A stretch of 35,999 bases of DNA from Candidatus Altimarinota bacterium (GCA_043756665.1 JAYUQR010000056.1:1-35999), one strand, 5' to 3'. Counted from the stretch's first letter, positions 860 to 35,340 are shown. Notes: a model not told the origin generated them from the letters alone. Numbers and translations: made by a program.

Positions 860-1198
860 CTATCCAGATCGTGGCACCCCATAAAAATCAAGACCCTTGA
901 GGTCAGTCATTGATTTCGTGATATAATTTTTCTTTTTCCCCTTCTTGAAAAATCCACGTTCATCGATAATACCGATCTCCACGAGCTGATCGATATTCTT
1001 CGTTGGAAGCTTTTTTTTCGGAAATGCCTCTTTATTCTGCATGTATCGAGTTCTCTTTTTATAGGAGAGATTGAATCGTGACTGTTTATTCTCATTTCCC
1101 GTGTATACAAGAGCCATCTTTTTCTTTCCTTTCGAAAGCTTTCGGGCAGCGGCTTGTTTTTTGACGATACTAGATTTGAGTCCGTGACTGTTAGCCAT
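860..1198 (-). CDS. Lys-rich basic protein (112 aa), hypothetical
   Basis: Uninterrupted ORF from the track, ATG start, no in-frame UGA. Strongly basic (KKQAAARKLSKGKKK, FFKKGKKKN). No family recognised. Confidence 0.45.
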   Translation of the reverse strand: MANSHGLKSSIVKKQAAARKLSKGKKKMALVYTGNENKQSRFNLSYKKRTRYMQNKEAFPKKKLPTKNIDQLVEIGIIDERGFFKKGKKKNYITKSMTDLKGLDFYGVPRSG

Positions 1199-1277: not shown

Positions 1278-1649
1278 TTATTTACTGTCGGTGAGAGATC
1301 TCTTATATCGGATAAAACCGGATAAAAGTTTCAATACAGTTTCTATCTCGCCTGTAATGGTTTCATGAAAAGCATCTCAGATATGTCCGAGCCGGTACGA
1401 TAGAATTACTTGTGTCTCGAGCTCCATAGCAGAACCTCTTGCAATAGTGAGAAATCGGATTAATTCAGCGTTTGACGATCTTCACATTCACTCGGCGATA
1501 TTGCTCGGGATCGAGAGAGACGCACGTTTCATTTGATCAGATAGGTTGTACGTGAGACTTTTCGGAAGAGTTTCACATACTTGAAAAAAAGTTTCAGCCA
1601 GCTTCATTGATCTTTCCCAGACTTCCAGATTCTTATAGTGAGTATTCAT
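1278..1649 (-). CDS. Four-helix-bundle protein (23S rRNA intervening-sequence / S23-like family)
   Basis: ATG 1649, TAA 1278-1280, 123 aa with three in-frame UGA: MNTHYKNLEVWERSMKLAE...SIPSNIAE(G)M(G)RSSNAELIRFLTIARGSAMELETQ. This matches the family signature NLxVWQ...IPxNIAEGxGR...FLxIArGSxxEl. Two UGA codons (1488-1490, 1482-1484) fall on the invariant Gly of AEGxGR. Confidence 0.85.
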
Positions 1650-1691: not shown

Positions 1692-1770
1692 TGGAGCGGG
1701 GAAACGGGTTCGAACCGTCACACCCAAGGGTTGAAGCCTTAGTACACTCACTCTTTTATGTTACCCCCGC
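1692..1770 (-). tRNA. tRNA-Gly with anticodon UCA (UGA decoder), CCA encoded
   Basis: Reverse complement GCGGGGG...TAAGG-CTTCAAC-CCTTG-GGTGT-GACGG-TTCGAAC-CCGTT-TCCCCGC-T-CCA. The loop is C-U-UCA-A-C; the anticodon is the complement of 1732-1734. It has a 5-nt variable loop and a 7-bp acceptor stem. G1:C72, C2:G71, G3:C70, U73 and C35 are bacterial glycine identity elements. The D-arm is atypical and I could not number it cleanly. Confidence 0.8.
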
Positions 1771-1890
1771 ATGAGATAATGGACAATGTACAATGAAAAA
1801 TGTACAATGTAGAGCTCGGGCAGTATATAAAAATGAGTCAAAAAGTCAAAAATCTCTTTGGATTTCGAGATTTTTTTCTATATTCGATAT

Positions 1891-3597
1891 ATGAATACTT
1901 CACCGAATACATCACTTCTCCATGAGATTCTCGAAGCACTCCTTACGGATCCAACTGTTATAACGAAAGAAGGTTTTCAAAAACTCAAGAATGCTATCCT
2001 CGGAAAGTATGGAGAAAAAGAAACGCCGACCTCGATAGAACTGATTGCTCATTATGCTGCATGAATCTCATCTGGCACATACCGAGAAGATTCTCGTGTG
2101 AGGAAAGTTCTCAGAAAAAGACCGATTCGTTCTCTTTCCGGAGTTTCAGTGATCTCCCTCCTCACCAAGTTTTGGGGATGTCCAGGTAAGTGTGTCTATT
2201 GTCCCACATATGACAATCTCCCAAAAAGCTATATCACGGATGAACCAGCAGTACAGCGAGCGGAGATGAATGCATTCGACCCATTTCGTCAGGTGCAGAA
2301 TCGACTCCAATCACTCTCGATGACGGGGAATGCGATCGCAAAATGTGATGTACGTGTTATCTGAGGAACATGGAGCGTTTATCCGAGAGAGTATCAGGAG
2401 GATTTTATTCGGAGTATTTATGATGCGCATACGAGTTTCAGGAGTTCGCAGTTCGCAGTTCGCAGTTCGCAGTCAGAACAAGGGAATCCATTTTTTGGTT
2501 CTGAAGCCCAAGATTCCAATATTCCAACATTTGAACAGTCACCCACTCTCGATAAGGCAAAAAAACGAAATGAAACTGCCTCGAGTCGAGTTATTGGTAT
2601 TGCCATCGAGACCCGTCCCGACTGGATTGATGAGGAAGAGTTGATATGCATACGCAACTATGGAGTCACTCGAGTGGAGATAGGGTATCAGACGACGGAT
2701 GATCGAATTAACGAGATCAATAAACGAGGTCATGGAAATCAGGAATCTATACGTGCAACCCGTCTCTTGAAAGATGCTGGTTTCAAGGTCGTAGCTCATA
2801 TGATGCCTGGACTCGTCTGATCGACGCCAGAAATCGATAGAGCATCGATGGCAGAAGTATTCGATAATCCTGACTATCGTCCTGATGAGATGAAGATCTA
2901 TCCTATGGTGGTGACGCCTCACTCAGAACTCGAGGATATCTGGCGTCGATGAGAATTCATCCCTTATGATGATGCCACGCTCATTCCCCTCATGTCTGAT
3001 CTCCAGGGTATGCTTCCTGAGTATCTGAGGCTCAATCGTATGTATCGAGATATCCCAGCGAGTCAGATCCTCGCAGGGTCAAAACTCGCGAACCTCAGAC
3101 AGATTACGGAGGTGAATATGCGTGCTCGCGGGATCGTCCGTCGAGATATCTCAGCCCGAGAGATCCGGGCTCGTGACAATGATCCTCATACGGCAATCCT
3201 CGATATCACTTTCTATGAGGCAAGTGGTGGTCATGAATACTTCCTCCAGTATATTGATCCGATTGATCGGACCATCTTTGGGTTGGCACGACTGCGTATT
3301 CCTTCACAGTATTTCACAGGAGAGACACATTTTATACCAGTATTGGATCGGGCTGCCATCATCCGTGAGCTCCATGTCTTCGGTGATCAGCTCTCTATCG
3401 GTGTTCCGTCAGATGGATCAGGACAACATATGGGATTCGGACGGCGGATGATGGCGGAAATGGAGCGGATCGTTCGGGAAAAGTATGAACAAATCGAGTG
3501 TATCGCAGTTATAGCAGGAGTCGGCGCAAAAGAATACTACAAAAAACTTGGATATACGGATGCAGATAGCTATATGATAAAAAAGTTGACAAATTAA
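1891..3597 (+). CDS. elp3: Elp3-family radical-SAM / GNAT enzyme (tRNA wobble-uridine cm5U-type modification)
   Basis: Frame 1 joins track ORFs 1858-2064, 2098-2364 and 2992-3597 through four UGA codons. Radical-SAM cluster motif GCPGKCVYCP; I(G)GTW..YPREYQ; IETRPDWI; EIGYQTTDD; C-terminal GNAT part QHMGFGRRMM...LGY. 568 aa. ATG 1891 preferred over the TTG at 1858. Confidence 0.9.
2443..2473 (+). repeat. Heptanucleotide tandem repeat (agttcgc) x4 plus a partial copy, inside elp3
   Basis: agttcgc at 2443, 2450, 2457 and 2464, then agt(c). Encodes SSQFAVRSSQS in a variable linker of Elp3. Confidence 0.9.
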
Positions 3598-3746: not shown

Positions 3747-4259
3747 ATGAAGCTCACTACGCGTGGTTTTACCCTCGTCGAACTCATGATCGTTATCGCG
3801 ATCATCGGTATCCTTGCTGCTGCCCTCTTCCCATCTATGACTGCCTATCTCAAGCGTTCTCGTGATGCTGCTCGTGTCTCAGGTACAAAGGATATATCCA
3901 CTGCTGCTGGTGCTTTCTTTACTGATAGAGAACGTTATCCTGATTCTACAAGTGTCGCTCCGATGGGTTGTGTTGGAAATTCTCTTACTACTGGATTTTC
4001 TACTGTCTATCTTCCAAAAGGTATTCCTGTTGACCCAACCTCAACCAATGATAATGGCTGTGGTAGTAATGGAAATTACGGTTATGGTTCAGGTAAAAAT
4101 GCAACTTCATTAGCACCACAGTTTTTCTTGACTACTAAGTTCGAAAACGTCAATGGTGGAAATACTGGTTCTATAGCTTGATACACTGGAGCTAATAGAA
4201 CCACTGGTCTCGGAACTCCTACTAAGGGAGCGGGTGCATTCTATGTTCTCTCGAATTAG
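3747..4259 (+). CDS. Type IV pilin / pseudopilin-like protein, paralog 1
   Basis: MKLTTRG|FTLVELMIVIAIIGILAA is a class III (prepilin) signal with G|F cleavage and Glu+5. One in-frame UGA (4179-4181) aligns with GGA (5017-5019) in paralog 2. TAG at 4257-4259. 170 aa. Shared C-terminus GTPTKGAGAFYVLSN. Confidence 0.85.
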
Positions 4260-4590
4260 TTCTGATACCCGATTTGAACTATTATCTCGAATTCATTGAT
4301 ACTACTCATTGAGTAAGAAGCATATGATCCTCTCGTATTCCGAAAAGAACACAAGAAAAGTCATACGCTTTTTCCTGGTGCGTTATATCAACTATAGATC
4401 CAGATGCTCGTGCAGCATACTCAGGATATTCGTGGATACGATTGATGGATTATAGTTGACAGAAATATAAAGTTCTGATACTCTCGAGTGACCATTAGAC
4501 ATACAGAAAAGAAAAAGTCTCTATATTTCTCCTTTTTTTTTCTGTAATACCTGTATAATGCCCACGTCTTTATTTTTTTTCTTCCCCCTT

Positions 4591-5097
4591 ATGAAGCTCA
4601 CTACTCGTGGTTTTACCCTCGTCGAACTCATGATCGTTATCGCGATTATCGGTATCCTTGCCGCTGCACTCTTCCCATCTATGACAGCTTACCTCAAGCG
4701 TTCACGTGACGCTGCTCGTGTCTCAGGTACAAAAGATATTTCTACTGCTGCAGGCGCATTTTTTACTGATAGAGAAAGATATCCTGATTCTGAACCAACC
4801 ACTGGTTGTGCTGGAAGTTCTACTGCTACCGGGTTTTCTACAGTCTATCTCCCTAAGGGTATTCCTGTAGATAATACTTCAACCAATAATAATGGTTGTG
4901 GACCGAACGGAAGATATGGCTATGGTTCTGGTAATAATTCAACCGGCAATGTGCCACAATTTTTCCTTACTTCCCAGTTCGAAAACGTCAATGGTGGAAA
5001 TACTGGTTCTATATTCGGATATACTGGGCAAAGTGTAATAATCAATCTCGGAACTCCTACTAAGGGAGCAGGTGCTTTCTACGTTCTCTCGAATTAA
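4591..5097 (+). CDS. Type IV pilin / pseudopilin-like protein, paralog 2
   Basis: Same prepilin N-terminus. ATG 4591 chosen by homology to paralog 1 (the track start 4558 is upstream in frame). 168 aa. Confidence 0.85.
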   Translation: MKLTTRGFTLVELMIVIAIIGILAAALFPSMTAYLKRSRDAARVSGTKDISTAAGAFFTDRERYPDSEPTTGCAGSSTATGFSTVYLPKGIPVDNTSTNNNGCGPNGRYGYGSGNNSTGNVPQFFLTSQFENVNGGNTGSIFGYTGQSVIINLGTPTKGAGAFYVLSN

Positions 5098-5149: not shown

Positions 5150-5653
5150 ATGAAATTTCCTATTCGTGGGTTTACCCTCGTCGAACTCATGATCGTTATC
5201 GCGATTATCGGCATCCTTGCCGCTGCCCTCTATCCAGCGATCACGAACTATATCGGACGATGAAGAGATGCACAGAGAGTAGCGCATCTCAAGGATATAG
5301 GAACGGCATTGACGAACTTTGCGAGTGATAATAAAGAAGACTATCCTGCCACTCTGGCTGATTGTGACCTCTCCGGTTCCCTTATGGTATTTCTGAATAA
5401 AGAACTCAAGGACCCTTTTCCAACGAGAAATCATGGATGTGGTCCGAATGGATTTTATGGATATGGTACAGGGGTGATCAATGTGACGCAATATTATGGT
5501 GTCAGTGCTGATCTCGAGACAGAGTATGGTGGATACTGGGCTGCATCGGGCTCGAATAATCCATTTACGGGAACACTTGATGCAGGGGATATCAATAACC
5601 TGAAGTTCAATCTCTGAAAAGGGAAAGGTCCACTGTATGTACTGTCTCAGTAG
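5150..5653 (+). CDS. Type IV pilin / pseudopilin-like protein, paralog 3 (divergent)
   Basis: MKFPIRG|FTLVELMIVIAIIGILAAALYP. Joins track ORFs 5072-5263 and 5309-5617 through UGA at 5261-5263 and 5615-5617. Ends ...GPLYVLSQ, TAG 5651-5653. 167 aa. Confidence 0.8.
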
Positions 5654-9008: not shown

Positions 9009-9133
9009 TCTATAGACCATCCTGAGTATTGATTCAAAGAAAATGTGAAAAAAATGTGAAAAACTTTTTGCATTTCTGAATAATCCTATTATACTCACTT
9101 CCACACGTTCTTTACTTCTTATTTTTTCTCATT

Positions 9134-9415
9134 ATGCGTATCGCATTACTTTCTATTGCCCTCATCACTCTCCTCTCTGCATGTACTGCACCGAGCAAGA
9201 CTCCAGTTGTACCAACTCCTGAGACAACTACAGTTACTGTCACAGATGTTCCTGCTCCAACTCCAATGCCTGTTCCTGAGCCTATGCCTGTACCAACTCC
9301 AACTCCTGTAACTGATGTAGCTCCAGCTCCAGCTCCAGCTCCAGCTCCAGCTCCAGCTCCAGCTCCAGCTCCAGCTCCAGCTCCAGCTCCAGCTCCAGCT
9401 CCAGCTGCGAAATAA
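9134..9415 (+). CDS. Lipoprotein with Pro/Thr-rich linker and (Ala-Pro)14 repeat
   Basis: MRIALLSIALITLLSAC is a signal peptide with lipobox LLSA|C. It is followed by TPVVPTPETTTVTVTDVPAPTPMPVPEP... and (AP)14. 93 aa. Terminator follows. Confidence 0.75.
   Translation: MRIALLSIALITLLSACTAPSKTPVVPTPETTTVTVTDVPAPTPMPVPEPMPVPTPTPVTDVAPAPAPAPAPAPAPAPAPAPAPAPAPAPAAK
9320..9406 (+). repeat. Hexanucleotide tandem repeat (gctcca) x14 plus a partial copy
   Basis: Perfect gctcca units from 9320 to 9403, then gct. In frame, encoding (Ala-Pro)14. Confidence 0.95.
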
Positions 9416-9430
9416 TTCTGAATATATGTA

Positions 9431-9456
9431 AAATCCACTGAAAAGTGGATTTTTTA
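9431..9456 (+). terminator. Rho-independent terminator
   Basis: aaatccact (9431-9439), loop gaaa, agtggattt (9444-9452), T-run to 9455. Confidence 0.75.
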
Positions 9457-9484
9457 TTTGTATTTTTTCGTGATTTCGGATAAT

Positions 9485-12400
9485 ATGCAAGGGATAATAA
9501 CCTCTACGAAATATATGACAGGAATCAATACACCACAATGATTATCAGAATCTGTTGATAACAATACTTCTGGAAATAGAGTCAAGAAAAATATACTAGA
9601 ACTTCTCGAAGAATCAACAGAGGCGAGGGCATTTCGAGATTCTGCGAGTCAGGCAGATCTCCTCCAGAGACTCAAAAATAATCCGCACCTTGTTGCTGAA
9701 GAAATCCGATCAGAAATGAATGATAGACTCAGAAACAGTCATGATCAGTATAGAGATGATATGGTGGCAGAGATTCTCAAATCTGAAAATGCGAGCTCAT
9801 CCACAATACCTCAGTCTATAAAGAATATAACGGATGCGACGATCCTCGAAAAACTCAACATATTTCTCTTGAGCACGAAGTCCGCACAGGGTAAACTGAA
9901 AAATAAAGTACGATCCCTCTTTGCTGACGAAGTATTCGATAAGGACTCACCTAATGCTGCTGACAATCGTGAGGCACTTGATAACTGGATCGGACAGCAT
10001 AATGAAAGTGCAATCCGTAAATATCTCAGATCTCCAACACTTCTGAGAAAACATCTAAGGAGGGATTGTTTTCATGATACAATGGATTCTTTCCAAGATA
10101 GAAATTCTATGTATTTCTTCGAAAAACTCTGAATAAAATGGGAAACCCTCACAGAAACAGAGCAAAATCTATGCATAAGGCTCAGAACCAATACGGGAAT
10201 AGTGAAACCTTGAGCTCGATGAGGAATTATCAATGAGTTCAATCATCAAGATATTCGATGATACCTACGTATTATCGATAAGGCAACTTGTACAAGTGCT
10301 CAGAAACTCGAATCGAAGAAAGACCTTATCCGAGAGTTCCTTCCTACGACAACTCCACAATTTCTCGTAGAAATGTGAATAATAAATGAGCAACAAGCTC
10401 GAGAAAAAGTGAAAACTTGACTTGAGGCTATTCTCTGAGAATGATACTTCGAACTATGATCAGACGATGAGAAGCGTGAAAAACAGAGATTCCTGGAGGT
10501 ATCATATACAAAATGACAATATATCGAGATTCCTCTAGAGGAGTACTTATCTGATAATGATTTTATTGAAAGATTATTCGACGCCTCGATGCGCTCTACA
10601 ACGCCATTGACGAAAAATATGGCGAAAGATATGCAAGATATTGTAACTGGACTTCAAAATACTCAGTTTGATCTCTGAACTATGAAAATCACTCCAGATG
10701 CACGGGGATGATGGCATACGAGTTTCGTAGAAAATCTCACTCAACTCAAAGCGAAAGATCCTACAAAGCCACAAGTAAAAAATGCTCAGAATTTTCAGGA
10801 AGGATCATATATCCGCATCGGGCAAGATAGAAATGGAAAAAAAGAATATAGATACTTTCGTATAGCTAAGACTGATGTTCGGCTCTCTATGCCGTCAGAT
10901 ATCCAAGATAAAGATGGAAATAAGGTCAGTCACCGATGAATCACCATGGAGGACTGGTCAGGGGAAGGTGATGGTATGGTCATGCCAGGGAGGCAAAAAT
11001 GAGTCAATGACTGGCCTTATGCAAAACTCGCAACATTACTGAGTAAGCCTGGAGATGAAATCGAGATCATCACTGCTGATGAAATGCAATCCAGACGCAT
11101 ATCAAAGTGAGAGGATAAGATTAATACTACGTATTCGGTGAATGACGTCTATAATTCTATAGAAAAACTCGAAGATGCACTCTGATGGAAACCAGAAAAA
11201 TGATCCATCTATAGTACGAAAGATGTAAAATGAGGTTCTGATATCTTTATAGAGATATTGAGTATCGATCCTGAAAATGGAAAGATGATCATCTCCGATG
11301 GGATCGGTGATTTTCCAGTCAGTTTCGCGCAATTCTATGAGATAGCTACAGAGCTCAAACTCAGGGAAATCGGAAAGTATAAGACAGATACTGATATCAA
11401 TTCCATCATCCAAACCCTTGGTGATGGATTCAAGGATCTGTCTTTCGAAAGTGGGGGTATCTTCCAGACGGTTAAGGATCAGCATGGGCATAATAAAAAA
11501 ATCCGTATCAGTCACTTCATGAATGAGGATGGTGAAGGTATGTATTGTGATTCTCTCACTTCTGGATGAGCCCAGGTGTCATTTGGGAAAGTAGCAAAAA
11601 ATAAAAAGGGTGATGATTGGGGGGATATGAAGTGAAAAGCGAATCTCAAGGCGTTCTCGGGGAGTTCACGTACATTATCTATGGCAGGATTTCTGAATCA
11701 GATCAGAGACAATGGCTATAAACCCTATATGAACCCGAAGGAGAAGGGTGATGAAATCGATCATGAAGATCATCAGCTCCATAGTCATGGGACAGTATGG
11801 TGAAAGATCATGAACTGGACGAGTTTCTCAAATATCAGCAAGGCATTCGATCTCTATAAACATGCCTGGGAGCATAAGATGGAGAAGAATTCGAAATTTC
11901 AGGCAGCACGATTCGCCGATAAATATCTCACGAAACTCATGCCCGAGGGAATGCGTTATTCTCTGCGATCTGAGGCTGCAGGAGCACAAAATGAAGCCAT
12001 GGAATGAGTTCTCAAAATGCTCGAAGAGATGAATGGAAAAACCGCTCGACTCCATGTCCGAAATCATATCCTCCTCAATGATGACGCCAAATTCGAAGAA
12101 GTTCTCGCATGACTCCTCTATATATCGAAAAAAACGGGTCAACTCTATCCAGAAGAACTCTCCGATCTCAAGAACTCAAAGCTCTGGTTTACCAAGCTCG
12201 CAATCACTCAAGGGTATAGCACTCGATATTCTCGAAAACAGCTCATGCAAAAGTGTATCGAAAAAACTGATAAAGGTGCTGAAGATCCGAGTGCTATCTC
12301 GGAAATGGATCTCGTCGAGCGTCAACTCAAGTATTATGAAGGAATGAATTTCCGTATCCCTCCGAATATTGCTCCGAAATTCCCATGAGCCCTCGTAGAA

Positions 12401-13675
12401 GGGAGTAAATGAAATAAGGAAAAATGAGAACTTGAAGTGAATCAACGTTCCAATATCAGTCAGATGAACAAATATGCTCTTTCGAAGCTCAATGTGGGAG
12501 AGGGATGGAAGGCAATGGGGTGTATAGACAGACTTCATACAAAAAATGGAAGTCCTACTCAACTCAATGCAATTCCATTCACGCTCCTTATGTCAAATAT
12601 GCCTGAGTATCTGGGATCAGAGTTCCGTAAAGCACTTCACTCTGAATGAACTGGATCGAGAACATCGCATGCATTCAAATTCGGGAATGAGATGTCCCTT
12701 GTCAATACCTATCGTAGTGTCGTATGAATTGCAGCAGCGGAGGTGGCTCGGAGAACAAAAAATCCTTGAATTCTCTCCGAATTAGAGAAAATAGAAAAAC
12801 AAAGACATCATATCGGTGAAGAGAGTCATAGGAAAAAGACAGAAGATGATCAGAAAGATTGGATCAACTCTATCTATGATTTTTGGATGAAATATGGAGA
12901 TAAACTCCAGCCGATCCTCCAGATGAGTGATACTTTTATTGATGCAGAAACAGAGTTTGGGACTAATGACAGTACAAAAAATTTCTGCAAGACTTATAAA
13001 GATAGATTTGCAACTACAAGTGGTATGCAGAACAAACAATTATTAGAAAGTTGAGCAATATATACAAAAAATTCGAATGTTGCAGAAGGTAACATGGTTC
13101 CTGATCATACCCCGTTTGCATTTACGAATATGGTCAATGCTTCTTTTTCTGCTATATATTCTCAAAGTGGTATGATGGGTACTAGTCAGTCAAATTCAAC
13201 AGCTTATACTGAAATATTCGCACCATGAGTACTTGGTGCACTGTACAAGCTTCGTAATCTCTCAGAAGAAGATATACCGCCATGAATGAGTCTAGAAAAT
13301 GTTCAACGAAAACGATTCCAAGAATATTTTGCTGCTATTATGTATTATCTTCGTACAAAGTGAACAAACCCACCAGAAATTATGCTAGGTTGAGGCAAGG
13401 ACGGTAGACCAAAAATGAATTATATCATTGATTTGGAAGAGTATTGATTCAATTTGAAGTCATCGGACTTTGGATGAAAGTTTACTACGAAGCCAGCCTG
13501 AGCAGAAATCGAGCCAAATACACAGATACCGAATCCACTGGTAATTGATAGTAGAAATGATAGACTCCGCTGTGAAGAAATGTTTCAGAATTTTAGAATG
13601 ACAACAGCTCGAGTTACGGCAACAACAGCTCGAAATGTTTGAGATACATTTGATTATGAGTGATATTGAGGGTAA
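9485..13675 (+). CDS. Very large hypothetical protein (1396 aa), no family recognised
   Basis: Frame 2 is open from ATG 9485 to TAA 13673-13675 if UGA is read as sense; I verified this codon by codon over 10130-11260 and 12005-13675. It unites track ORFs 9716-10132, 11258-11569, 11810-12007 and 12437-12649. About 41 in-frame UGA by hand count and no in-frame TAA/TAG. No signal peptide or TM segment seen. Confidence 0.7.
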
Positions 13676-30780: not shown

Positions 30781-30893
30781 TTGTTTCAATGTACAATTTA
30801 CAAATAATAAATTACAATTTCCGGATTGTTCACTATACATTGTTCACTGTTCATTGTTTTTGGGGGTATAGCTCAGTGGTTAGAGCAGTCGGC

Positions 30894-31256
30894 TTAAGGA
30901 TTTTTTTCTAAATCAAGCTCAGGATAATGTTCTTCTGCATGACAATTATGACAAAGGAGTATGCAGGATCTTAACTCATTTTCAATACGTTCGAATGTTC
31001 TATTCGAAAGGGATCGAACATCGAGTTTGAATTCTTTTTTCTGAGGGTCAGTGTGATGAAATGATAATGCACCAAGATTCTTCTTGTATCTGCATCTCAT
31101 GCATCAACCTCAGAAACGCTCAATAAGTTCACGTTTTCTTTTGAATCCTCGAGCTTTCTGAGATGGGTAACTCTGATGTTTCTTGTTTTTGCAGATGATC
31201 GAACAGAATAATTTCTGTTTTCCTGAAAGGATATTTCAGCATATGATACATTTCAT
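30894..31256 (-). CDS. HNH homing endonuclease encoded antisense within the intron
   Basis: ATG 31256: MKCIIC(G)NILSGKQKLFCSIICKNKK (zinc ribbon)...(G)G(G)CMRCRYKK...LSFHHTDPQKKEFKLD...ENELRSCILLCHNCHAEEH (HNH motif). 120 aa, three in-frame UGA. The TAA stop (complement of 30894-30896) abuts the 5' splice site. Confidence 0.8.
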
Positions 31257-31487
31257 AACTGAAAATATAGTAAGATATGAAAAATTTGCAAGGGCGGTTA
31301 TGAGAGTAATCTCATAATGTTTATCTGTCAAATTCGGGGAAACCTTCATCTCAATCGAGATATGGCAATCCCGAGCCAAGCCTGTAATAAGGAAGGTGTA
31401 GAGACTAGATGGCAGACATCCTGAAAAGGATGAAGGGATAGTCCAGACTCCAAACTCGAAAGGGGTAGTGAAAACTATAGCAGTACG
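30895..31487 (+). mobile_element. Group I intron (IC3-like, Azoarcus/cyanobacterial tRNA-intron type) in the anticodon loop, 593 nt
   Basis: The 5' exon ends in U and the intron ends in G (31487). The core at 31320-31487 contains gtcaaattcggggaaacc, tatggcaatcccgagccaagcc and gaaggtgtagagactagatggca. As I recall them, these match the conserved J3/4-P4, P6 and J6/7-P7 segments of the Azoarcus tRNA-Ile intron. P2-like hairpin ttatgaga-gtaa-tctcataa and P8-like hairpin atcct-gaaa-aggat. I could not identify P1/IGS. Confidence 0.75.
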
Positions 31488-33141
31488 CATAACCGATTGG
31501 TCCCTGGTTCAAGTCCAGGTACCCCCACCATAATGTAAATCATTCAGTAAGAGCATCAGTTTTAATGTAACTGATGCTCTTTTCTGTTAGTTCCAACGTA
31601 AAAATATACCCATGTTGTAATTTATTGAACTCTATAAACGGCAAAAACCAATCATGAAGATTGGCTTGCAGTTTCTGATCCATTAATATCCAGTTCCAAC
31701 CAAGAGAACGAAAAATCATTTTCTTGGTTTCTAGATCTCAATCTCTGAATCTTTCGGAAGCATATTTTGAGAAATTGATAGTATCTATGATGAGTTCAGT
31801 CCAGTCTATATTTTCTTTTTCTATCTCAGTTTTTCGTATTTGTAGTAATTCTATTTCTTTTTCTAGCTCTAGCCTCATTCTATCATATTCTTTATAGTTA
31901 CTCTCGAACTCTCAAGCGAGCCTCATGTGTAAGAGTCTCGTTTTTTTCTTTTCAGCAGATTCAAGAGTATTTGTAATGTTTGTTTTTATACTTTCCCTGC
32001 CAGTAGATTCCTCACTATATTTTCGCTTGAGTACTTCTTTTGACCAGTTGAAGAACTCTGGAATGATTTCAATCTCACTTAGAATTTCTTCTATTTGTTT
32101 TTCAACTCATTCGTTTGAGACAACTTTCCTTTGATCGCAATGAAATTCAGTTGTATTTTTTTTGTGTGTGCAGTGGTAATATGTGTATTCTTTCTCTTTT
32201 CCAGTAGAACGTATGTTCTTGTACTTCTTGACTGCTGTAACCATACAACCACAGCATCAGCAACGAATATTCCCAGTATAGGGGAATGTTAATATAGAAG
32301 GCCTTTCTCTATATACCTTATTTGGAGATCCACTTGTATGAGAGATGAGCTTTTGAGCTTTCTCGAATTCTTCCCATGTAATCATAGGCTCGTGAGATCA
32401 CTTGATTGTATTTTTATTATACTTCATGTATCCTGTATAGAAAGGATTCCTGAACATTGCATATAGTGTAGATATTGCGAGTTCTCTACGAGCCTTATAT
32501 TTTACATTTACTGTGGAGTATCACCACTCCGTATTGGCAGTATGTGCTATCTGAGAAGGAGCATAACATCATGTGAGTAGCATATCCCACATCTTTCTTA
32601 CCAACTGGAACTTTTCTGGATCAGAAGCAATAGTTCTTGTAATAGGGTCATTAATATAGCCTTGAGGCGCCTTTGCAGGAAAGTGACCTTTCTCAATCTT
32701 ACTTTTGAGTCATCTTCTTACATTTTTAGAGAGATCAAGAATATACTGATTTGCCATACCTGTTTCAACGCTGAAGATGAGTCATGAATCTTCGGGATGA
32801 TACACTCTATCGCTTGTTATAATTCGCTTTATTTTGTGCCTCTGAAGCATATATTGAACACTTCCTGCATCTACTGGGTTACGAGTAAGTCTATCAAGCT
32901 TCCAACAGAGAATACCATCAATGCTTCATTCTTCTATTTCAGCACACATTTCATAGAATGCTTTCCTTACTCACGGAGCCTTTGCTGATTTTTCTTCAGT
33001 GTAGATTTTCACAATTTCTATGCCATCTTCGACTGCTTTCCTTTTCCAGTATGTAATCTGGTCATCAATTGACTGAACTTGTCTATCTTCTCTTTCAGAA
33101 GACTTCCGTGCATAAAGCACAAATCGGGTAGCTTTTTCCAT
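31405..33141 (-). CDS. Large serine recombinase (resolvase domain, recombinase domain, zinc ribbon, coiled coil)
   Basis: ATG 33141: MEKATRFVLYARKSSEREDRQVQSIDDQ (catalytic Ser region)...IDGILCWKLDRLTRN...GHFPAKAPQGY...AMFRNPFYTGYM...GNIRC(G)CCGCMV...YYHCTHKK...FHC, then a coiled coil. I verified every codon. There are 11 internal UGA codons. A 12th UGA at 31540-31542 is the only stop-like codon before the tRNA. The first in-frame TAA/TAG is TAG 31405-31407, so the code-25 ORF is 578 aa, or 533 aa if it ends at that UGA. Confidence 0.8.
31549..31584 (+). terminator. Rho-independent terminator of the split tRNA
   Basis: aagagcatcagtt (31549-31561) / aactgatgctctt (31569-31581) form a 13-bp perfect stem, followed by tttt. 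Confidence 0.65.
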
Positions 33142-33201
33142 AATAAAATTGTTAAGTAATGTAAAGTAATATATAAGGTACTATTGATAAGTACATAATA
33201 T

Positions 33202-35340
33202 TTATGTAAGTCAAACATCAGCTATCGGGCTTATATGCATATTTCTTCAAATATTTTCTATAGTGATGAGTCCAGCATTAGCGAGAGTTGGCTCTATTTC
33301 TTGTCTCCAAAGAGCATCCGACATTGGTCTACCATAAACTTCACTATGTTTTTGTATAATTTTCTTGCGGGTGACTCATATTGCATCCTCTGGTCAGAAA
33401 TAATCTTCCCTTTGCTTGTTGTACTCTATGTAGGCAGGAACAAGTATCTCCATATACAATCGCATTGTATATGGAGATACATTGAACTTTTGACCAGGAG
33501 AGATCTTCTGCCATAGGCTCCATGCTTCCTCAATATCGGTATCTTCGGCATATAAAGTTGCTCATGTTCTTTTTCGATGAGGGAGATTAAGGAGAGCGAA
33601 AGCTCTAATGAATCACATGAATCGGTCTATGTCTCGTTGGTCCCGAGGTATACAGCCCTGTTTTCATTTTCACTCCAGAAAGAATCGATCTACTTTCTCA
33701 GGATCGAGAAAGTCTATATCGTCTATATTGGCATCTTTTATATGCTGAATTCTTTCTTTGAGAATATTTCTTTCAGGATCATTTATAATTGATTCTTTTA
33801 GCTTTTTATCTGCACCACTAAGTCTAATTTTATGCTGGACAGTATCATAGATCTTCTCGCTATGAGTTTCGGGAGAGATAAGTAGAAAACGAGTTGCTTC
33901 TTGTTCATCGAGTTGTGTCGATGCTGTACAGAATACAGCTACAGGATATCCATAAATAATAATGTTTTTTGTTTGGTTTCATCATTGACCACTTTTATCT
34001 GTTATTTTACAGGTCAGAATTGGTTTATCATGTGAGAGAAGAGGCCTTAATTTTCAAAGAAGTTCTGTTCTAGGCTGATCAATAAATATGATAATTTTTC
34101 TATCGAGATGTATGTGTTTCTCATTTTTCTCTTTATCATACTCTCCATTTTCATGGAAGAACGCACTTTGAGATACATAAAGTAATTCCATAAGACTATC
34201 TTTTGGGAAAAGTTGAGCTATCTGTAAGGGTATGTATGATTTACCAGATGAAGACGGAGCATTTAGCATTATATTTATCTGTGAGTCCCTCGTAAATGCT
34301 GTAAGCATAGCCAGAAATACGATTAATTTATTCGTGTCATCATGTTTAATAGTAAGTGAAAGTATTCTTATAATGTCTACACTCGTCATCGGAGCAAATT
34401 TTGATGAATCTGTACCCCGTATGAGCTCACTATATAAAGTCATCATTTCATCGCTAGTTCCACCATTTTTTATAAAGTCAGACACATCTTTCCCCATTTC
34501 TAGTGGAAGTGAGATTCTATATATCTCTTTTTCAGGAAAACGAGCAATAAGTCGGTCAATAAGTCTAGTGGCTCATTTATTTCAGGCATCATCATTATCA
34601 AAACAGATATATATTTTAGAGAGCGATGCAAGACTCTCTAACCATTCTTCTTTGAATGTTCCTACTCATCCCGTAGAGCTTATTCACATAAGTCCCTCCC
34701 GAGAAAGTATCATCTGATCGAATTCTCACTCGCAGATCACTATATAATCATCATTATTTTGCATGTTTTCTCATCCATAGAGCATCGTTTCGTTTCAAGA
34801 TGGGTAAAATATATACTTATTTCCTTCCGATCAGTAGGGGTCACGTCTGAGCTTAAAAAATTGAAATACTCATTTTATATCTCGAATTGGTATTGTTATC
34901 CAGTTTGATCCATAGAAAGAGCCATATCCGATTTGCCTTTCTTTTATGAGTTCTTCCGTAATACCTCGTTCATTCAAGTATTCACGGATGTTTGGTGGTA
35001 ATGACTTCTGATACTTTGAGATATCCTTTTCTGTTAGAGTTATCTTCTTTTTTTGGACTTCTGGATTTCTTGGACTCTTCGGATTTGTGTATCATTCAAG
35101 TGGATATTCTCAAGGATCATCTCAAAAATGTTTGAGAAGCGTGATCCAGTTTCATTGTGCGAGACATTTTTTGCACTGGTAGAGTCCTGTAGACTCTTCG
35201 ATATAAAGATGAGCTTCCTTGCCTCGACTGTCTTTGTCGCATTCATTGAATACGCAATGTGCTGCAATTTCTTTGCCAGTCTTATAGTGAAAGATTCATT
35301 TTTTATCCAAATAAGTGGGGATCGTTGTAGTAGGTAACAT
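33202..35340 (-). CDS. Primase-helicase: CHC2 zinc finger, TOPRIM primase and P-loop NTPase fusion
   Basis: ATG 35340, TAA 33202-33204, 712 aa, every codon checked, 25 in-frame UGA. Zinc finger AAHCVFNECDKDS...LYQCKKCLAQ(G)NW. TOPRIM IVICE(G)EFDQMIL...YICFDNDDA(G)NK(G)A, with UGA on the invariant Gly of EGxxD and DxDxAG. Walker A MLNAPSSSGKSY and Walker B-like KIIIFIDQP. Contains track ORF 34054-34497. Track ORFs 35040-35267 and 35053-35337 are out-of-frame or antisense shadows. Confidence 0.85.

Follow-up and report, generated by a model that had tools for sequence, protein, structure and literature searches.

The 35,999-nt stretch of DNA from Candidatus Altimarinota bacterium considered here (GCA_043756665.1, JAYUQR010000056.1:1-35999; "the window" refers to that whole stretch) carries on its minus strand, at positions 1692-1770, a 79-nt tRNA gene that comprises 76 nt and an encoded CCA and has the anticodon UCA (ARAGORN). 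This tRNA, referred to below as tRNA(UCA), is very probably the dedicated tRNA-Gly(UCA) with which a Gracilibacteria-type (Patescibacteria) genome decodes UGA under translation table 25, the code in which UGA specifies glycine. tRNA-Gly(UCA) is already published as the decoder of code 25, and at least 10 public genomes contain identical copies of the gene. Being the published mechanism of the reassignment, the tRNA brings no new biology of its own. For the window, the consequence is that it is part of a code-25 (UGA = Gly) Patescibacteria genome on which gene calling needs table 25; table 11 breaks its genes apart, and table 4 writes glycine as tryptophan, as is visible in public entries.

The meaning of UGA in the window

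The longest open reading frame (ORF) in the 36 kb is 269 amino acids (aa) under the standard code and 1419 aa when TGA is treated as sense, while the control of freeing TAG or TAA instead yields longest ORFs of 345 and 413 aa, respectively. With TGA as sense, greedily chosen non-overlapping ORFs cover 89% of the window. TGA accounts for 112 of the 5761 codons of 10 confidently assigned genes, equivalent to 27% of GGN plus TGA, which makes it the second most used glycine-type codon; the same genes terminate with TAA (seven genes) or TAG (three genes).

For four conserved proteins encoded in the window, alignments to solved structures were made in which X stood for each TGA codon (for Elp3, G was used and the positions were then checked), and a glycine match was counted in the best or second-best solved homologue, with the following outcome:

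RNase J: 6 TGA positions aligned, 5 facing Gly, the other facing R
QueA: 5 TGA positions aligned, 4 facing Gly, the other facing S
SufS: 3 TGA positions aligned, 2 facing Gly, the other facing E
Elp3: 3 TGA positions aligned, 3 facing Gly, no others

Glycine lies opposite TGA at 14 of the 17 aligned positions, the remaining three being R, S, and E, and at none of the 17 does TGA face Trp or Cys. The positions at which TGA stands for glycine include catalytic motifs, such as HGHxDHIG-G and FFSF-G-D. A 112-aa protein encoded next to the tRNA provides a further line of evidence, in that its public translations were evidently made with code 4, and 11 of their 13 W residues sit in columns that are at least 80% Gly in the other sequences. 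The ORF statistics, the glycines at aligned TGA positions, and the database tryptophans on glycine columns together lead to the conclusion that the window uses translation table 25, and all three bear out the proposal of UGA = Gly made for the window in an earlier sequence-only reading of it.

A 1396-aa ORF at 9485-13675 (plus strand) contains 41 TGA codons; it is preceded by a low-complexity stretch (9043-9483) in which some 30 Ser codons run in one frame. The codons CGA (84) and CGG (34) are common among the 5761 codons of the 10 confident genes, whereas in Absconditabacteria they are rare and have been reported as reassigned to Trp (PMC8629427).

The tRNA gene, its orthologues, and its probable glycine identity

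ARAGORN, which the sequence-only reading had suggested as a check, calls a tRNA with anticodon tca at 1692-1770, exactly where that reading had placed a 79-nt tRNA gene; its label "tRNA-SeC" mirrors the anticodon only. Rfam RF00005 (tRNA) scores 42.3 bits over 1695-1770, its gathering threshold being 29 (E=7e-6, calculated on the whole window), and this generic model is the top-scoring family within the Rfam tRNA clan for the interval. The assignment to the minus strand is an addition, as no strand had been given. In the 5' to 3' direction, the RNA reads GCGGGGG UA ACAU AAAAGAGUGA GUGU A CUAAGG CUUCAAC CCUUGG GUGU GACGG UUCGAAC CCGUU UCCCCGC U CCA, and its parts are located as follows:

1692-1770, minus strand: gene of the very probable tRNA-Gly(UCA), 76 nt plus genomic CCA (ARAGORN; Rfam RF00005, 42.3 bits; 110 orthologues)
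1764-1770, minus strand: 5' strand of the acceptor stem, G1 C2 G3 G4 G5 G6 G7, with its partner at 1696-1702 (sequence, orthologue pairing)
1744-1761, minus strand: D arm, stem ACAU/GUGU and 10-nt loop AAAAGAGUGA (ARAGORN fold, Rfam alignment, compensatory changes)
1724-1742, minus strand: anticodon arm, 6-bp stem CUAAGG/CCUUGG and 7-nt loop CUUCAAC (ARAGORN fold, orthologue changes)
1732-1734, minus strand: anticodon UCA (TGA on the plus strand), U34 C35 A36, flanked by U33 and A37 (ARAGORN, sequence)
1720-1723, minus strand: variable loop GUGU, 4 nt (derived from the 6-bp anticodon stem)
1703-1719, minus strand: T arm, stem GACGG/CCGUU and loop UUCGAAC (Rfam alignment, two compensatory pairs)
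1695, minus strand: discriminator U73 (sequence; invariant in the 110 orthologues)
1692-1694, minus strand: encoded 3' CCA (sequence; present in all orthologues with a long enough contig)

Orthologues were sought in one genome per bacterial and archaeal species with four pattern scans, the patterns being combinations of U8 or U8-A9, the T-loop motif, and acceptor positions. The first pattern (G1C2G3G4, U8A9, CUUCAA, T loop, and CCGC-U) gave 79 loci. In 72 of these the match is 76 nt long, and each of the 72 bears the label Gracilibacteria, "Peribacteria", Patescibacteria group, or just (uncultured) bacterium. A second pattern with a non-G at position 4 added 38 loci of the form GCGAGGG...CCCUCGC, among them the complete genome CP042461.1. 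The resulting 110 orthologues, nearly all from genomes labelled Gracilibacteria, Peribacteria, or Patescibacteria, are all 76 nt long and share the same architecture, and 10 are identical to the tRNA of the window; the match thus goes far beyond chance. The three scans additional to the first returned more Gracilibacteria, chance matches, or odd tRNA-like hits. The genome of the window is not among the species representatives; its flanks are most similar (89% identity over 1.7 kb) to JAYVLL010000142.1, a Gracilibacteria metagenome-assembled genome (MAG), and are 65-78% identical to many other loci in which gene order is kept. Mean column identity of the 110 tRNA genes is 94%, and the flanking protein genes go down to 51-92% identity.

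The cloverleaf is well supported by covariation among 18 distinct orthologue sequences from the first genome scan. Across this set, 99.5% of the cells are paired and five pairs have changed on both sides. The observed covariation score was attained in 0 of 500 shuffles, and pairing falls to 25-60% when the partners are displaced by 1-3 columns. The 7-bp acceptor stem, which the sequence-only reading had described correctly, is paired in 100% of cases, and in the second clade it shows the compensatory change G4:C69 to A4:U69. The same reading had recognized the anticodon loop C-U-UCA-A-C, which is found in both the sequence and the ARAGORN fold, but had been unable to fold the D arm into a 4-bp stem. 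ARAGORN draws such a stem (A10-U25, C11-G24, A12-U23, and U13-G22) closed by a 10-nt loop, and it is corroborated by compensatory changes in orthologues at 10:25 (A-U to G-C) and 12:23 (A-U to U-A). Two pairs of the T stem likewise show compensatory changes, and the third pair of the anticodon stem changes from A-U to G-C in four distinct sequences. The sixth, outermost pair of the anticodon stem is C-G in 109 genes and U-A in one (L098), representing one compensatory event, and it improves the energy of the cloverleaf by 3.2 kcal/mol (-22.9 kcal/mol with a 6-bp stem versus -19.7 with 5 bp). Because the anticodon stem has 6 bp, the variable loop is 4 nt (GUGU) rather than the 5 nt claimed previously.

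By its RF00005 score above the gathering threshold and its covarying cloverleaf, tRNA(UCA) belongs with the class I elongator tRNAs, but it departs from their canonical form (contiguous G18G19, 5-bp anticodon stem, and 5-nt variable loop). Three odd features, namely the 10-nt D loop, the sixth anticodon-stem pair, and the 4-nt variable loop, are identical in all 110 genes, and in the D-loop consensus AAAAGAGYGA the G18G19 doublet is split by an A (G-A-G). The anticodon loop, T loop, U8, A14, and CCA are intact. The 6-bp stem and the split GG go unmentioned in the literature on the code-25 tRNA that was consulted, and the architecture may be new; a 2026 survey of 4-bp anticodon stems treats the code-25 clade solely with regard to tRNA-Trp.

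The acceptor end carries G1:C72, C2:G71, G3:C70, and U73, and the anticodon keeps C35 and has A36, all as previously read. These four acceptor features are those used to classify tRNA-Gly(UCA) as the expected UGA decoder of Gracilibacteria and Absconditabacteria (Shulgina and Eddy, 2021; PMC8629427), and tRNA(UCA) possesses every one of them. Genomes of the group without tRNA-Gly(UCA) carry release factor 2 (RF2) instead (PMC8629427). Comparison with tRNA-Gly(UCC/GCC), another check that had been suggested, was made on related genomes, whose tRNA-Gly(GCC) and tRNA-Gly(UCC) have G1, C2, G3 (A3 in one clade), U73, C35/C36, and an encoded CCA; tRNA(UCA) matches them at the acceptor-end identity positions and at C35. 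In contrast, three Gracilibacteria tRNA-Cys genes have G1, G2:C71, C3:G70, and U73, and are thus opposite to tRNA(UCA) at 2:71 and 3:70. The canonical tRNA-Gly genes of the lineage differ from tRNA(UCA) in their D arm (GCUC AAUUGGCUA GAGC, with GG), 5-bp anticodon stem, 5-nt variable loop, and C36. Identity between tRNA(UCA) and these genes is limited to 49-51 of about 80 aligned positions, compared with 64 of 78 between GCC and UCC, and tRNA(UCA) is therefore an old, strongly diverged paralogue rather than a recent anticodon mutant. In 11 loci, tRNA-Gly(GCC) follows it on the same strand after 5-26 nt, an adjacency compatible with a common history and probably with a common transcript.

From the identity elements and the glycines at UGA positions, we infer that tRNA(UCA) is charged with glycine by glycyl-tRNA synthetase (GlyRS) despite A36. 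In the mechanism that we propose, the minus-strand transcript would include the genomically encoded CCA, and the acceptor end of the tRNA together with C35 would make it a GlyRS substrate. The anticodon UCA would then pair with UGA codons in the ribosomal A site, where glycine would be inserted. UGA would no longer act as a stop, the lineage being reported to be without RF2; TAA and TAG remain stops. A modification of U34 may prevent the tRNA from reading UGG (Trp) and UGU/UGC (Cys), the UGA codon box being shared by three amino acids.

Alternative readings of the tRNA and of UGA

Several observations weigh against the assignment as tRNA-Gly(UCA). C36 is a GlyRS identity element in E. coli, and tRNA(UCA) has A36 in its place, so that charging would need a tolerant GlyRS; moreover, U73, C35, and A36 are also three determinants of cysteinyl-tRNA synthetase (CysRS). 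The D loop AAAAGAGUGA is without the near-universal G18G19 doublet, and the Rfam score of 42.3 bits is the lowest among the six tRNAs of the window. The minimum free energy (MFE) fold of the single sequence is not the cloverleaf (-23.9 versus -22.9 kcal/mol) and is no more stable than those of shuffled sequences (z = -0.59). Within the 36-kb window, no release factor with a GGQ motif is encoded, which says nothing on RF2 in the rest of the genome. The low score, the atypical D loop, and the MFE fold could be taken to indicate a degenerate or non-functional tRNA-like sequence, with UGA decoded otherwise, for example by near-cognate reading. Such decay is very unlikely in a gene that keeps 94% mean column identity in 110 genomes while its flanking proteins range down to 51-92%, that shows compensatory changes in the D, anticodon, T, and acceptor stems, and that has preserved its anticodon loop, T loop, U8, A14, and CCA; furthermore, the window contains no second UGA decoder. 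The single-sequence MFE is uninformative here because covariation among orthologues supports the cloverleaf, which lies within 1 kcal/mol of the MFE. CysRS depends on U73 and the GCA anticodon, from which UCA differs only at position 34, and the tRNA-Cys of the lineage also has U73, so that charging by CysRS, with UGA read as Cys or ambiguously as Gly/Cys, has to be considered. Little probability can be given to this, however, as G34 is absent, no aligned TGA position faces Cys, and tRNA(UCA) shares C:G at 2:71 and G:C at 3:70 with tRNA-Gly, whereas the three Gracilibacteria tRNA-Cys have G:C and C:G.

The ARAGORN label and the 6-bp anticodon stem, a feature common to tRNA-Sec and tRNA(UCA), would be in keeping with a selenocysteine tRNA that reads rare UGA codons via SelB and a SECIS element. 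The discriminator of tRNA-Sec is G73, whereas tRNA(UCA) has U73; its acceptor and T stems have 7+5 bp rather than 8+5, its D stem has 4 bp rather than 6, its variable loop is 4 nt with no long arm, and no family of the Rfam tRNA clan matches it better than the generic tRNA model. TGA, at 112 of 5761 codons and with 41 in one gene, faces Gly rather than Cys/Sec. Structure and TGA frequency together refute tRNA-Sec, which the sequence-only reading had also dismissed, and leave it a negligible probability. A tRNA-Trp(UCA) operating with code 4 (UGA = Trp), as in Mycoplasma, would account for TGA being sense, and public pipelines did use code 4 on relatives, hence the W in database proteins; those residues, however, fall on invariant glycine columns, and none of the 17 aligned TGA positions faces Trp, in comparison to 14 facing Gly. 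The G1:C72 and U73 of tRNA(UCA) also differ from the A/G1:U72 and G73 of bacterial tRNA-Trp (PMC8629427), and it is extremely improbable that UGA means Trp here. Equally hard to entertain is a suppressor tRNA that belongs to a phage or mobile element rather than serving as a chromosomal decoder. At 31.4-35.3 kb there is indeed an integrated element, which carries genes for a serine recombinase and a Toprim primase-like protein, but the tRNA lies some 30 kb away from it among housekeeping genes (Elp3, pilins, RuvA, QueA, SufS, and RNase J), in a neighbourhood that is syntenic in dozens of genomes, and its pattern has 0 matches in 2.9 million viral contigs.

Related tRNAs, neighbouring genes, and the remainder of the window

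The tRNA-Gly(UCA) of Gracilibacteria (BD1-5/GN02), the decoder of table 25, is the same gene with the same anticodon, acceptor signature, and neighbourhood; there is no difference of substance, and the window adds a 23S_rRNA_IVP-family gene downstream of the tRNA. This role of the Gracilibacteria tRNA was reportedly described by Rinke and colleagues in 2013. In proteomics of a BD1-5 bacterium, 97 peptides were unique to UGA = Gly versus 3 for Trp (Hanke et al., 2014, PMC4032931). The SR1/Absconditabacteria tRNA-Gly(UCA), known here from citing papers, is likewise an extra tRNA with a UCA anticodon and GlyRS acceptor elements. It is stated to keep the GlyRS identity elements and to have D and anticodon arms divergent from canonical tRNA-Gly (PMC4695839, citing Campbell 2013), RF2 is described as lost with UGA reassignment in SR1 (PMC4695839; PMC13462651), and SR1 genomes are said to use an additional tRNA rather than wobble (PMC3812714). 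The four genome pattern scans gave no locus labelled Absconditabacteria or SR1, and the SR1 tRNA therefore falls outside the patterns and is not a close sequence relative.

The tRNA-Trp(UCA) of Mycoplasma/Spiroplasma and of insect endosymbionts (code 4) is also a dedicated UCA tRNA that makes UGA sense after RF2 loss (PMC4695839; PMC13462651), but it may read UGA and UGG alike, both being Trp codons, whereas tRNA-Gly(UCA) must avoid UGG. With tRNA-Sec and tRNA-Pyl, tRNA-Gly(UCA) shares the 6-bp anticodon stem, a shortened variable/junction region, and the reading of a canonical stop codon (for tRNA-Pyl, see PMC4695839); unlike them, it is without a 13-bp acceptor/T helix, long variable arm, 6-bp D stem, or special elongation factor, and it acts at every UGA instead of at programmed sites.

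Some tRNA genes recovered by the scans are not part of the orthologous set. A Patescibacteria MAG (JBAZTY010000004.1; locus L125, 507-580, minus strand) has a canonical 73-nt tRNA(UCA) with G1C2G3 and U73, and the long ORFs at this locus neither contain nor end in TGA; its genome may hardly use UGA, or may represent an intermediate stage in the reassignment. tRNA-Gly-like genes with CUUCAA, of 70 nt (L053, L075, and L057) or 71-73 nt (L005, L021, L058, and L108), occur in standard-code bacteria, including the chromosomes of Ramlibacter terrae and Bradyrhizobium sp. RDT10 and several MAGs. The 70-nt genes resemble tRNA-Gly(UCC) minus one C, giving a 6-nt loop, and could be assembly errors or frameshift-type variants. 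In those of 71-73 nt, the anticodon UCA sits in a 7-nt loop, and these genes may encode natural opal suppressors.

The features flanking tRNA(UCA) are the following:

1891-3597, plus strand: full-length bacterial Elp3, radical SAM plus acetyltransferase (Pfam Radical_SAM, Radical_SAM_C, ELP3_N)
1822-1849, minus strand: tentative sigma-70-like promoter TTGACT-16-TATACT, about 52 nt upstream of the tRNA (consensus scan, 10/12 matches)
1278-1649, minus strand: 23S_rRNA_IVP family gene (PF05635, 115 bits), inserted between tRNA(UCA) and the orphan protein gene
860-1198, minus strand: 112-aa Lys-rich orphan protein, between tRNA(UCA) and tRNA-Arg(GCG), co-oriented downstream of tRNA(UCA)

The promoter candidate is weak, since the number of promoter-like sites in the tRNA region equals the shuffle expectation. 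A 9-mer, ATGTACAAT, occurs on the plus strand at 1786-1794, 1800-1808, and 30789-30797 (three copies versus 0.2 expected in the window), two copies lying upstream of Elp3 and one upstream of an intron-containing tRNA(CAU) gene; it could be a lineage-specific -10-like promoter element.

Elp3 matches the Elp3 proteins of M. infernus and Dehalococcoides (PDB 6iaz, E=5e-98, and 5l7j, E=1.5e-94), and is described as making cm5U at the tRNA wobble position U34 (PMC6367351; PMC13315578). It is divergent from tRNA(UCA) with a 120-nt gap in the window and is adjacent and divergent (<400 nt) in 30 of the 110 loci; in a further 13, it occurs at another place within the 8-kb locus. Adjacency is kept down to 51% protein identity, mostly within one clade, and Elp3 could modify U34 of the UGA decoder. 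The orphan protein gene is located 14-600 nt downstream of tRNA(UCA) on the same strand in 63 of the 110 loci, which include members of both clades; just 24 nt separate it from the tRNA in the closest relative (L012). The protein has 507 homologues, the 120 matches listed being 67-92% identical and none of these 120 having a functional annotation or Pfam domain. Searches by sequence or profile gave no Pfam, NCBIfam, or PDB match, and among 1.84 billion 50%-identity cluster representatives there were 16 hits, mostly fragments. Its AlphaFold2 model (pLDDT 83, pTM 0.47) is elongated and helical and has no Foldseek match in PDB. The protein is specific to Gracilibacteria and highly conserved.

It is conceivable, although we think it rather improbable, that these elements form a decoding module in which the non-canonical tRNA body, cm5U-type chemistry at U34 by Elp3, and the 112-aa basic protein jointly confine reading to UGA. 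If such a module exists, the longer anticodon stem would be the converse of the 4-bp stem of tRNA-Trp(CCA), which makes decoding looser. The linkages of tRNA(UCA) to Elp3 and to the orphan protein could be plain synteny inertia. They go unmentioned in the literature consulted and may be new, and together with the odd architecture they offer handles on how a tRNA with U34 reads UGA without misreading UGG.

The other genes of the window are those of an ordinary chromosome and encode type IV pilins, RuvA, an EarP-like protein, a UDP-sugar pyrophosphorylase, QueA, SufS, a peptide-binding protein, and two RNase J-like proteins. Three paralogous type IV pilin-like genes are arranged in tandem on the plus strand (3747-4259, 4558-5097, and 5150-5653), and their products have the common N-terminus ...TRGFTLVELMIVIAIIGILAA (N_methyl motif).

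A tRNA(CAU) gene at 30862-31530 (plus strand) is split between U33 and C34 by a 593-nt group I intron (30895-31487) that matches Rfam Intron_gpI with 78.9 bits over 31277-31468. The gene was missed by ARAGORN in the whole window, and its exons (30862-30894 and 31488-31530), when joined, give a clean 76-nt tRNA-Met(cat) in the same program. Antisense to the intron, an ORF of about 120 aa (about 30895-31255, minus strand) has Cys-rich and CHNCH motifs like those of HNH homing endonucleases and has no Pfam hit at E<0.01. The interval 31405-35340 (minus strand) is probably an integrated mobile element. It codes for a 712-aa Toprim primase-like protein and for a large serine recombinase in which Resolvase, Recombinase, and Zn_ribbon_recom domains are recognized. 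This recombinase/primase pair adjoins the 3' exon of the intron-containing tRNA(CAU), and under code 25 the recombinase ORF extends into that exon and the intron.

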